A stretch of 64,000 bases of DNA from Candidatus Hadarchaeales archaeon (GTDB taxonomy: Archaea > Hadarchaeota > Hadarchaeia > Hadarchaeales > Hadarchaeaceae). Shown here piece by piece: positions 50,041 through 51,821 of this stretch. The position numbers and the translations under genes were made by a program. Every line of letters begins with the position of its first letter. The stretch's first letter is position 1. Location: NCBI GenBank assembly GCA_038851075.1, contig JAWCLG010000003.1:1-64000 (forward strand), given 5' to 3'. The notes under the pieces are model-generated. The model saw only the letters and a program-made list of their open reading frames with translations. It was not told where the DNA came from and ran no database searches.

Positions 50041-50211
50041 TTCATCTATTATAGCAGTCATCAGGCACAATATAAACATATCCCCACGTTCGCGTTTTAG
50101 CAAAATTCAAGTATTCCAGCTCATTTTTTCGATATCAAAACTCAGAGATGAAAAACGCATTTAGCGATTCAGCGATTCTGTGCAATCAAATGAGTGGTGC
50201 CCGGGTTCAGG

Positions 50212-50311
50212 TGGCGCCCATCGGCGGAGCGTTTAACTCCTTGGCCGGGATTTGAACCCGGGGCGGAGCCTCGACAGGGCTCCATGTTGGTCCGGTCTAC
50301 ACCACCAGGGC
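50212..50311 (-). tRNA. tRNA-Asp(GTC) with a 22-nt BHB intron (50220-50241) in the 3' acceptor strand (position 68/69)
   Basis: GAGCC-CTGTCGA-GGCTC anticodon arm; removing AGGAGTTAAACGCTCCGCCGAT restores CCAGGGC-G-CCA, which pairs 7/7 with 5' GCCCTGG. Confidence 0.88.
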
Positions 50312-50395: not shown

Positions 50396-50519
50396 TGGTT
50401 GGCAGCGTATCGGGCTTCCCGCCGGCTTGCGCACGGCAGTACAACCTCGATCGCTGGCGGGCTTAACTTCCGGGATCTGACGGGACCGGGTGTCACCCCG
50501 CCGCTATGGCCGCCAACCA
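50396..50519 (-). rRNA. rrf: 5S rRNA (not linked to the 16S gene)
   Basis: GGCGGCCATAGCGG, CACCCGGTCCCG, GAAGTTAAGCC, GTACTG; terminal helix TGGTTGGC/GCCAACCA. Confidence 0.93.
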
Positions 50520-50560: not shown

Positions 50561-50678
50561 TGGTCCCGCGGGGGAGATTTGAACTCCCGACATGTCGGTT
50601 CCTATCTTTTTTGGGTCTCTGGCCCGCCTTCCATATGGCGAACAGCCGACCACTCTAACCAGGCTGAGTTACCGCGGG
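50561..50678 (-). tRNA. tRNA-Tyr(GTA) with two BHB introns: 23 nt at 35/36 (50619-50641) and 17 nt at 37/38 (50600-50616)
   Basis: C1-G72 and A73 (archaeal Tyr identity), encoded CCA; splicing gives GTCGG-CTGTAGA-CCGAC. Confidence 0.88.
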
Positions 50679-50711
50679 ACCAATTAAGTTTCTTCTCTAA
50701 TTTCTTAAATA

Positions 50712-51821
50712 TCATCCCATGAACACGTGCAGTCTTCTCAGGGCGTCCAGTTTTTCTCTTTGCCCGATACCGGCAGATTTAACCGCATCTCCCAGAATTT
50801 CTATCGTTCTCTGATAAGTTATTTTGTCTACCGGGTATGGAACACCGTCCTTACCTCCATGTGCGAAGCTGAACTTTACAGGGTCTTTCCATGAGGGCGG
50901 TTTTCCGTAAATTAGATCGGAAACTAGCGCCAGCGCTCGCACGGCTTTTGGACCTATACCGCGGATGGCAACAAGCCCCTCGTAGTTCTCGGGCTGAAGC
51001 TCGTATGCTCTCTGCAAAGCCGCGAGCGTTTGCTCCGTCAGCTTAGTTATCGCGTGAGAGGTTGGCATCACAAGCTTCGGCACTTTGGGACTTCTTTGAT
51101 CAAAATATTCATCGAGGGAGCGCTGTTCCGCCTCGCGCACGTATGGCAGCAAACGCTTCGGGTTGTCCCGAACCAAATCTACGCAGGTCTTGCGCGTTTC
51201 TTCACTATCCCGCGCGGTCATGTCCAACACCACTTCCTCGCTTCGGTCACCAATGATTCCAGAGTGAGGTTCCTCCACGAAACTTTTCACCCCTTCGAAG
51301 AGCCAGTGGTAACGCCTGGCCATTTGCCCGTGCATCCCCTGCTGTATCACCGCCCAGTCTCCGTTCTCTGTGAAAATGAAAACGTGATGATAAAGCTGAT
51401 AACCATCTTGGACGCAGGCGCTGTCGACCTTTGCAGCCATCCTGCTCGCATGCTTTAACCTATCGATCGTATGCGAGGAGAGGGAGAAAACATCACCGGC
51501 CCTTTCAATTTCCTCAGGCGTGAGTCTCGATGTTCTTCCCTTTCCTCCGCACACGGATATCCCAAGCTCCTCCGGTCTTATCGCCTCTTTCAGAGCCCCA
51601 CAAACGGTCGTTGTAAGTCCGGAGGAATGCCAGTCAAAACCGAGGGTGCATCCAAGAGCCTGAAAGAAAAAAGGATCCCCGATTCTTCTCAAAAATTCCT
51701 CTTGACCATACTCAAGAACTATCGCCCGACATATTGCTTCGCTAAGGCATTTCATTCTCTTGAAGAGCCACGGCGGACATCTCCCTCCGTGAAGGGGCAG
51801 TTCAGCGATACCGGATTTCAT
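50712..51821 (-). CDS. DUF763 family protein
   Basis: LPLHGG..PPWLF.RM, GFDWHSSG.TT, QDGYQLYHH, FSFAHGGKDGVPYPV. Confidence 0.88.
   Translation of the reverse strand: MKSGIAELPLHGGRCPPWLFKRMKCLSEAICRAIVLEYGQEEFLRRIGDPFFFQALGCTLGFDWHSSGLTTTVCGALKEAIRPEELGISVCGGKGRTSRLTPEEIERAGDVFSLSSHTIDRLKHASRMAAKVDSACVQDGYQLYHHVFIFTENGDWAVIQQGMHGQMARRYHWLFEGVKSFVEEPHSGIIGDRSEEVVLDMTARDSEETRKTCVDLVRDNPKRLLPYVREAEQRSLDEYFDQRSPKVPKLVMPTSHAITKLTEQTLAALQRAYELQPENYEGLVAIRGIGPKAVRALALVSDLIYGKPPSWKDPVKFSFAHGGKDGVPYPVDKITYQRTIEILGDAVKSAGIGQREKLDALRRLHVFMG

Follow-up and report, generated by a model that had tools for sequence, protein, structure and literature searches.

Short introns bounded by a motif of the bulge-helix-bulge (BHB) type and placed outside the anticodon loop are described from the transfer RNA (tRNA) genes of Thermoproteales and other archaea, including an intron at position 3/4 (excerpts of PMC4090602 and PMC6379350). 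The positions listed for such non-canonical introns in the excerpt of PMC4090602 are 3/4 and 20/21 to 59/60, followed by 'etc.'; BHB motifs are recorded in the acceptor stem (excerpt of PMC6379350), and introns close to the 5' and/or 3' ends are sought by tRNAscan-SE 2.0, which lengthens its candidates by 60 nt for this purpose (excerpt of PMC8450103). Here we describe an intron of this known kind in the tRNA-Asp(GTC) gene of a Candidatus Hadarchaeales archaeon, located in a 64,000-nt stretch of contig JAWCLG010000003.1 (assembly GCA_038851075.1, positions 1–64,000; hereafter the window). The intron interrupts the acceptor stem at position 68/69, and a 3' trailer with a complement of the T arm follows the gene. 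It shares with the described introns the motif, a short length, a site outside the anticodon loop, a BHB built from bases of another mature stem, and a presumed dependence on EndA and RtcB. Unlike the 3/4 intron, which lies in the 5' acceptor strand, it sits in the 3' strand, 8 nt from the end, and its host belongs to the Hadarchaeota, in which EndA appears to be of alpha4 size, whereas Crenarchaeota have a heterotetramer. The 3'-strand position and the putative trailer helper together make a new arrangement.

Disrupted tRNA genes are already reported from the same lineage. Kaneta et al. 2018 describe in Hadesarchaea an alpha4 EndA with an extra L3 loop and marked tRNA gene disruption (PMC5829648, excerpt), a picture shared by the single alpha4-size EndA of relatives and the many interrupted tRNA genes found here; that work gives proportions of disrupted genes in one genome, and its excerpt holds neither position 68/69 nor a trailer. 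In split and permuted tRNA genes (Nanoarchaeum equitans, Caldivirga, Thermofilum and Cyanidioschyzon), leader or trailer sequence outside the mature tRNA, complementary to its partner, forms the stem on which the BHB is presented and which keeps the pieces joined (PMC4090602, excerpt), whereas the helper proposed here would act in cis, in a colinear gene, and pair with the mature T arm rather than with another flank. Archaeal pre-ribosomal RNA processing stems are likewise long helices of distant complements with an EndA-cut BHB (excerpts of PMC7714728 and PMC10515664, and in part general background), but they release and circularize ribosomal RNA (rRNA), whereas here a ligated tRNA would be produced, to which one of the two stem strands itself belongs. 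Position 68/69, its spread in tRNA-Asp and the trailer complement are mentioned nowhere in the literature covered; as this did not extend to the key position maps and supplements, we do not claim that they are absent from print.

The intron in the acceptor stem of tRNA-Asp

The window (C3:1-64000) belongs to an assembly of 1.009 Mb in 29 contigs (52% G+C, 88% completeness, 0.2% contamination) and contains an archaeal 16S fragment and 5S rRNA; the organism falls within the family of Hadarchaeum, in the Hadarchaeota. The tRNA-Asp(GTC) gene (50212..50311, minus strand) includes the intron and an encoded CCA; ARAGORN and Rfam both call the unspliced form a tRNA-Asp, with two non-standard acceptor pairs and a score of 38.0 bits by Rfam, as compared with 71.5 bits for a neighbouring tRNA-Lys 1.2 kb away. 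With tRNA nucleotide 1 at 50311 and A76 at 50212 (checked by script), exon 1 (50242..50311, minus strand) comprises the 70 nt of tRNA positions 1–68 and ends in C66 C67 A68; the intron (50220..50241, minus strand) is 22 nt long by script arithmetic, and inserts at its site, with identical BHB geometry, are present in 36 locus rows; and exon 2 (50212..50219, minus strand) provides G69–A76, that is, the acceptor 3' strand G69–C72, G73 and CCA, as read from the sequence and from intronless orthologues. Once the 22 nt are removed, ARAGORN re-calls the gene as a tRNA-Asp with a 7/7 acceptor stem, G73 and the encoded CCA. No alternative junction gives the same product, because the letters at the intron borders forbid any sliding of the cut, and the exons are colinear and 22 nt apart, so that the gene is neither split nor permuted. 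The initial annotation had proposed a BHB intron at 68/69 whose excision rebuilds the tRNA, together with an unspliced stem containing two mismatches, and both proposals agree with the ARAGORN, Rfam and script results.

The precursor can be drawn with two 3-nt bulges on opposite strands, a 4-bp helix between them, and flanking helices at both bulges (hBHBh'), all on the minus strand. The central helix pairs C63 G64 G65 C66 of exon 1 (50244..50247), of which C63–G65 double as the T-stem 3' strand, with GCCG of the intron (50222..50225; from the sequence and our alignment A1), and is Watson-Crick throughout. One bulge consists of C67, A68 and the first intron nucleotide, and the other of the last two intron nucleotides (A-U) and G69. 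The intron itself forms a hairpin (50226..50240) in which the five pairs of inner helix h', GGAGT/GCTCC (four Watson-Crick pairs and one U.G), enclose a 5-nt loop. The outer helix pairs G70 G71 (50217..50218) with C61 C62 (50249-50248) and leaves T60 and C72 unpaired; at 2 bp it has the minimum length allowed. The BHB therefore occupies C61–C66, including the whole T-stem 3' strand, together with G69–G71, and its formation thus excludes the T arm as well as the acceptor stem. That splicing must precede formation of the acceptor stem, as had been suggested, is a logical consequence, C66–G71 being entirely taken up by the BHB. A rule that places each cut behind the second bulge base also holds for the tRNA-Glu(TTC) gene of this genome, with its canonical 15-nt intron (sequence read by eye).

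The presence of a BHB is weak evidence when taken alone, because a permissive definition (G.U allowed, inner helix of at least 2 bp) is so often matched by chance: it is satisfied by 2,066 of 5,499,442 cut-site pairs on the two strands of the window, and a permissive scanner reports 1 to 14 chance motifs per 190-230-nt region around other tRNA genes. A motif of the quality observed here (all Watson-Crick, with an outer helix of 2 bp, a central helix of 4 bp and an inner helix of at least 4 bp) falls on 10 of the same 5,499,442 pairs. Ten other low-scoring or intron-bearing tRNA loci of the genome were inspected, not exhaustively, and in these the acceptor stems are continuous and the inserts lie elsewhere.

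Conservation and covariation

The pattern with which further copies were sought fixed the exon parts and GCCG and left the inner helix free; invariance of the central and outer helices is thus uninformative, because the search forced them. The inner helix is present at the required place in all 25 distinct inserts, 20 of which have at least 4 contiguous bp and the other five 3 bp followed by more helix, whereas 2.3% of shuffled inserts reach four pairs. Ten different 4-bp inner-helix sequences occur among these 25. In alignment A1, which comprises 27 distinct genes (a same-genus gene, L008, was excluded for a second insert that interrupts its T arm), compensatory changes are seen at all four of the inner-helix pairs scored, with 95.3% of cells paired. 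The whole structure is 89.5% paired, versus 31-58% with slid partners, and the covariation score is reached by none of 500 shuffles. Two relatives have a single G.U in the central helix. The first bases of the intron vary by lineage (TGGGG, AAAGA, AGGAA) while the spliced acceptor strand is always kept, and intronless orthologues read CCCGGCCAGGGCGCC without a break, which is the predicted spliced junction. From these observations we infer cleavage and ligation, and we consider it highly probable that the gene carries a functional intron spliced by EndA.

Distribution across archaea

Among 40 relatives, nine have the insert at the exact site, all of them in the family of the window organism and spread over six genera; 24 have a tRNA-Asp without a 68/69 insert, and in the remaining seven the gene was not identified. 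Six of those 24 carry an insert in the D loop and two in the anticodon loop; insertion at different sites in sister groups means that one gene has been interrupted at different places. In the phylum as a whole, 15 of 66 Hadarchaeota genomes match the degenerate pattern, and one more (G014), in which the insert is too short for the pattern, is the sixteenth. Presence is polymorphic within genera, the counts being 2 of 14 for one genus and 3 of 6 for a second. A search of one genome per species (185,579 species) gave 26 pattern loci, every one a tRNA-Asp(GTC), whose record titles name 13 Hadarchaeota, 8 Bathyarchaeia, 2 Terraquivivens and 3 Nitrososphaeria/Nitrososphaerales, with 1 unnamed. An even sample of 401 Thermoproteota genomes contained 7 with the pattern, and the intron also occurs in some Caldarchaeales tRNA-Asp genes, beside those of Bathyarchaeia and Nitrososphaerales. 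The uniqueness implied in the initial annotation is contradicted by this spread (16 of 66 Hadarchaeota, seven of the sampled Thermoproteota and 26 named public records), and also by the literature, in which acceptor-stem BHB motifs (PMC6379350, excerpt) and a search for end-proximal introns (tRNAscan-SE 2.0; PMC8450103, excerpt) both appear.

Several individual loci deserve mention. Six genomes of one family, f2 (L065-L070), which lack the 68/69 intron, have a D-loop insert of ~30 nt in tRNA-Asp, and in two genomes of family f1 (G002 and G019) the tRNA-Asp insert is in the anticodon loop instead. One of the 13 Hadarchaeota records (L053) is titled Hodarchaeaceae, an Asgard name, yet its tRNA-Asp locus does not differ from the one found in a Hadarchaeota relative of the window organism's own family; the title is probably a naming slip. 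In the same genus as the window organism, L008 (genome G001) has both the 68/69 intron and, ~55-90 nt into the gene, a second insert of ~30 nt that directly follows the T-stem 5' strand within the T arm, so that a trailer complement would there face a split target. The tRNA-Asp 3' end of L016 (G015) reads CCAGGGCG, then ~20 nt, then GGCGCCA, and L022 (G008) of the same genus has CCAGGGCG without the second GGCGCCA; the L016 arrangement may reflect either an insertion beside the discriminator base or coincidence. The CCA is encoded in 33 of 35 intron-bearing rows (the other two read CTA) versus 6 of 16 intronless rows, and encoded CCA seems to travel with the intron.

A DNA sequencing run of the likely source sample, X1, yields a contig of a second, related organism that differs from the window at 6 positions in 47 nt (50242-50288) and has an intronless tRNA-Asp; it also reads CCCGGCCAGGGCGCC and has a loose end before 50242. 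Its 5S gene lies ~1.7 kb from tRNA-Asp, versus 85 nt in the window. As this contig is intronless, intron-bearing and intronless alleles coexist in one community. The sole DNA run that covers the whole stretch is labelled as a hot-springs metagenome and may be the source sample.

The trailer element

Downstream of the gene is an element (50196..50209, minus strand) that is complementary to two parts of the precursor. Beginning 3 nt after the CCA, TGAACCCGGG (50209..50200) is the exact complement of C48–A57 (50253..50262, minus strand), which comprises C48, the T-stem 5' strand (49-53) and T54–A57, and the overlapping GGGCACC (50202..50196) complements the leader GGT plus G1–C4. A complement of 9-17 nt starting 0-7 nt past the 3' end accompanies most intron-bearing genes, in all lineages. 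When scored as the best complement to positions ~38-59, the trailers of 35 intron-bearing rows, some of them the same genome reached by two routes, have a mean of 10.6 pairs (6-17), and those of 16 intronless rows a mean of 7.6 pairs (5-11); none of 200 shuffles matches the native trailer in 13 of the 35 intron-bearing rows, and this is so in none of the 16 intronless ones. A second contrast comes from one order of Thermoproteota (41 genomes, 31 with a match, 30 loci taken, 11 genes parsed and one variant unparsed), in which five intron-bearing genes have 12-16 pairs (0 of 100 shuffles in each) and five intronless genes with an identical T arm have 5-8.

The trailer helix is 82.8% paired over 27 distinct genes. 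G.U pairs fill 25 cells and are mostly one-sided, and two pairs are changed on both sides. The trailer also tracks lineage-specific bases beside the T stem, GAC occurring with GUC and GCC with GGC. A degenerate pattern that allowed other T-stem sequences returned no gene with a different T stem and thus no additional trailer covariation. The idea that the trailer is a spare 3' acceptor strand was rejected in favour of the T-arm 5' strand as the better partner, as the corresponding means are 5.9 in intron-bearing and 5.3 in intronless genes and do not discriminate between them.

Folding of the trailer-containing precursor

Among 28 distinct sequences, 18 distinct genes lack an interruption of exon 1, and for these the effect of the trailer on folding was computed as the ensemble cost of forming a complete BHB, with outer, central and inner helices and both bulges open. 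In the absence of a trailer this cost stands at 7.9 kcal/mol; it is 4.4 when the native trailer is present and 6.9 when the trailer is shuffled, and in 17 of the 18 genes the native value lies below the shuffled mean. For the window gene the values are 3.5 kcal/mol (native) versus 7.2 (shuffled), and none of 40 shuffles is as cheap. The modelled T stem falls to a probability of 0.00 with the trailer in nine of the 18 genes. The minimum-energy folds of L002, L009, L031 and L032 have a 12-13-bp stem of trailer and T arm around the intron hairpin and most of the BHB, and when the BHB is enforced the trailer stem sits directly beneath the 2-bp outer helix. After removal of the intron the modelled cloverleaf is regained in L002, L003, L005 and L056, and partly in the window gene. 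The trailer lowers the BHB cost less in a Hadarchaeum-type genus, and the largest gain in the cost test is that of L042, which achieves it through a different pairing, despite the lack of a clear T-arm complement.

These results suggest that the transcribed trailer serves as a cis-acting helper strand for the BHB, a role that we regard as plausible but unproven and as moderately supported. In the mechanism that we propose, the T-stem 3' strand and C66 of the precursor would pair with the intron GCCG, and C61 C62 with G70 G71, which with the intron hairpin would complete a strict BHB. Pairing as a surrogate with both the T-stem 5' strand and the first part of the T loop, the trailer would free the T-stem 3' strand, and in the window gene it would pair in addition with the leader and G1–C4. 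By extending the weak outer helix into a long stem, it would also tether the 8-nt 3' exon through cutting and joining. Each 3-nt bulge would be cut by EndA behind its second base, and A68 would be joined to G69 by RtcB; the acceptor stem would form only then, which places splicing before end maturation, and the trailer would be trimmed afterwards.

The models and alignments also weigh against a helper role of the trailer in several respects. The probability of the central helix taken alone is not raised, at 0.33 without the trailer, 0.26 with the native one and 0.30 with shuffled ones, and the native value exceeds the shuffled in just 9 of 18 genes. In L009, L031, L032, L035 and L038 the modelled trailer helix outlasts splicing and is lost only once the trailer has been taken away. 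By the simple measure of complementarity there is no clear T-arm complement in L015/L050, L033/L042 and L049, and the trailers of L004, L006, L007 and their kin, which make up the Hadarchaeum-type genus, have their perfect match, over 9 bp, in the leader plus the 5' acceptor strand instead. True covariation is thin, the T-arm strand being nearly invariant; the rows come from related genomes and are not independent; and the energies apply to 37 C, for organisms from hot springs.

Splicing machinery and RNA data

RtcB is encoded in the assembly (601.9 bits), as an intact gene on contig C8. A further locus at the end of contig C3 (G000:C3:103233-104972, plus strand) has two short RtcB-like matches in one long frame with internal TAG and TAA; it may represent a second ligase gene, or else a further copy that is either broken or intein-bearing. 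Among 41 genomes searched, 38 have an EndA match, which is single except in the same-genus G001 (two matches) and lies in open reading frames of 174-239 amino acids; five such frames, when translated, give 177-180 amino acids. As judged from these sequences, the EndA of the relatives is of the size of a homotetrameric alpha4 enzyme, in agreement with the alpha4 type reported for Hadesarchaea (PMC5829648, excerpt). Any type of EndA should accept the motif described here because the motif is strict, as the statements on substrate range in the excerpt of PMC5829648 imply.

A few findings speak against splicing of the window gene. The outer helix is limited to 2 bp, and the fold of minimum energy differs from the BHB, which costs 1.1-7.2 kcal/mol to enforce (8 genes). 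A PF01974 profile search found no EndA in the 88%-complete assembly, and the best tblastn match with the proteins of five relatives, at an E-value of 0.023, was judged to be chance; the most likely place of this organism's EndA gene is the 12% that is missing from the assembly. None of the sequencing runs that contain the stretch is recorded as RNA, and metatranscriptome X22 of the likely source study does not cover it; neither result bears on expression.

Alternative explanations

It is very improbable that the gene is a decaying pseudogene, or is used as an unspliced tRNA with two acceptor mismatches, CCA being added after 50236, and with a fortuitous BHB. ARAGORN and Rfam do accept the unspliced reading, no run recorded as RNA contains the stretch, and a second gene could hide in the missing part of the assembly. 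Against this, the gene is the sole tRNA-Asp found, a check that the initial annotation had called for and that was run over 40 ARAGORN calls and 36 Rfam matches; the insert occupies one site across phyla, with compensatory changes; the unspliced 'acceptor strand' varies by lineage while the spliced one is always kept; and the chance rate of such a motif is ~2 in a million. A sole gene that is kept across phyla and exactly repaired by BHB splicing lacks the marks of a pseudogene, as had been implied earlier, and the conserved insert, its compensatory changes and the intronless junction together make both pseudogene status and unspliced use very unlikely. Equally improbable is a reading of the insert and the downstream repeat as scars of a mobile element, or of site-specific integration at the tRNA 3' end with a duplicated attachment site. 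The 3' ends of tRNA genes are common integration sites, and the trailer element and the T-arm strand do form an inverted repeat in the DNA. But integration leaves direct rather than inverted repeats, the unit of ~65 bp has no coding capacity, and the borders of the insert are exactly the BHB cut sites, while the imperfections of the complementarity, mostly G.U (25 cells), point to selection on RNA.

An account in which the intron is real and spliced and the trailer complement is unrelated to it is a more serious contender, although we hold it to be rather unlikely. The complement would then serve 3'-end processing, keep the precursor inactive, stabilize a polycistronic transcript or act as a termination signal, and the unchanged probability of the central helix, the absence of a complement from some intron-bearing genes and the survival of the trailer helix after splicing in several modelled genes would all fit. 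It accounts less well for a complement that occurs with the intron and not without it in two phyla, the T arm being the same in both groups, for a start 0-7 nt after the CCA that puts the helix directly under the outer BHB helix in the enforced folds, and for the lowered cost of a complete BHB in 17 of 18 distinct genes. We also put forward, more tentatively than the helper role itself and with slightly less than even confidence, a wider proposal in which introns this near the 3' end persist only with a dedicated, trailer-encoded cis helper, intron and trailer forming one co-evolving module in the tRNA-Asp of Hadarchaeota, Bathyarchaeia and Nitrososphaeria. Such a helper would unzip the T arm, in some genera capture the 5' acceptor strand, build the long stem beneath the BHB, and hold the 8-nt exon for ligation.

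Genomic context

The tRNA-Asp gene is the last of a minus-strand cluster whose order is a TATA-like box, a tRNA with anticodon GTT, 5S rRNA and tRNA-Asp. The A/T-rich box, ATATTTAAG, is at ~50712..50704 (read by eye), and the 5S rRNA gene (50397..50517, minus strand; Rfam, 94.9 bits) is 85 nt upstream of tRNA-Asp on the same strand. The tRNA(GTT) gene (50564..50678, minus strand; 50.3 bits in a permissive Rfam scan, anticodon read by eye), with an insert of ~40 nt near the anticodon loop, was missed by the window scan at the Rfam gathering threshold and typed by ARAGORN as tRNA-Pro(agg); it is probably tRNA-Asn. The three genes are probably co-transcribed. The first five-T run past the tRNA-Asp gene, a candidate terminator read from the sequence (50151..50155, minus strand), is 57-61 nt after A76, and the trailer element is therefore probably inside the transcript.

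Elsewhere in the assembly, no tRNA for Met, Gly, Asn, Tyr or Lys(CTT) is among the ARAGORN calls, and at least the Gly(GCC) and Met-type (CAT) genes exist, with unusual inserts (sequence read by eye). A tRNA-Trp(CCA) gene outside the window (G000:C2:93120-93248, plus strand) has a long intron with ATGATG...CTGA motifs, which presumably resembles the box C/D guide RNA of archaeal tRNA-Trp introns.

Implications for archaeal tRNA introns

For annotation, we note that standard finders score this essential gene at 38 bits and as mismatched, so that tRNA-Asp can look defective in these lineages. The intron shows the reach of the BHB rule, with both the T arm and the acceptor stem dismantled in a host whose endonuclease is, to judge from relatives, of the simple alpha4 size, and its patchy distribution over two phyla, polymorphic within genera, provides a compact case in which to study how introns are gained, lost or transferred. 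A trailer helper, should it prove real, offers a testable answer to how an end-proximal intron is presented to the enzyme and how an 8-nt exon is retained, and it would place splicing ahead of 3' trimming. If the wider proposal is true, 3' trimming must await splicing, and flanking transcript sequence would be a general and overlooked determinant of where introns are found in archaeal tRNA genes.

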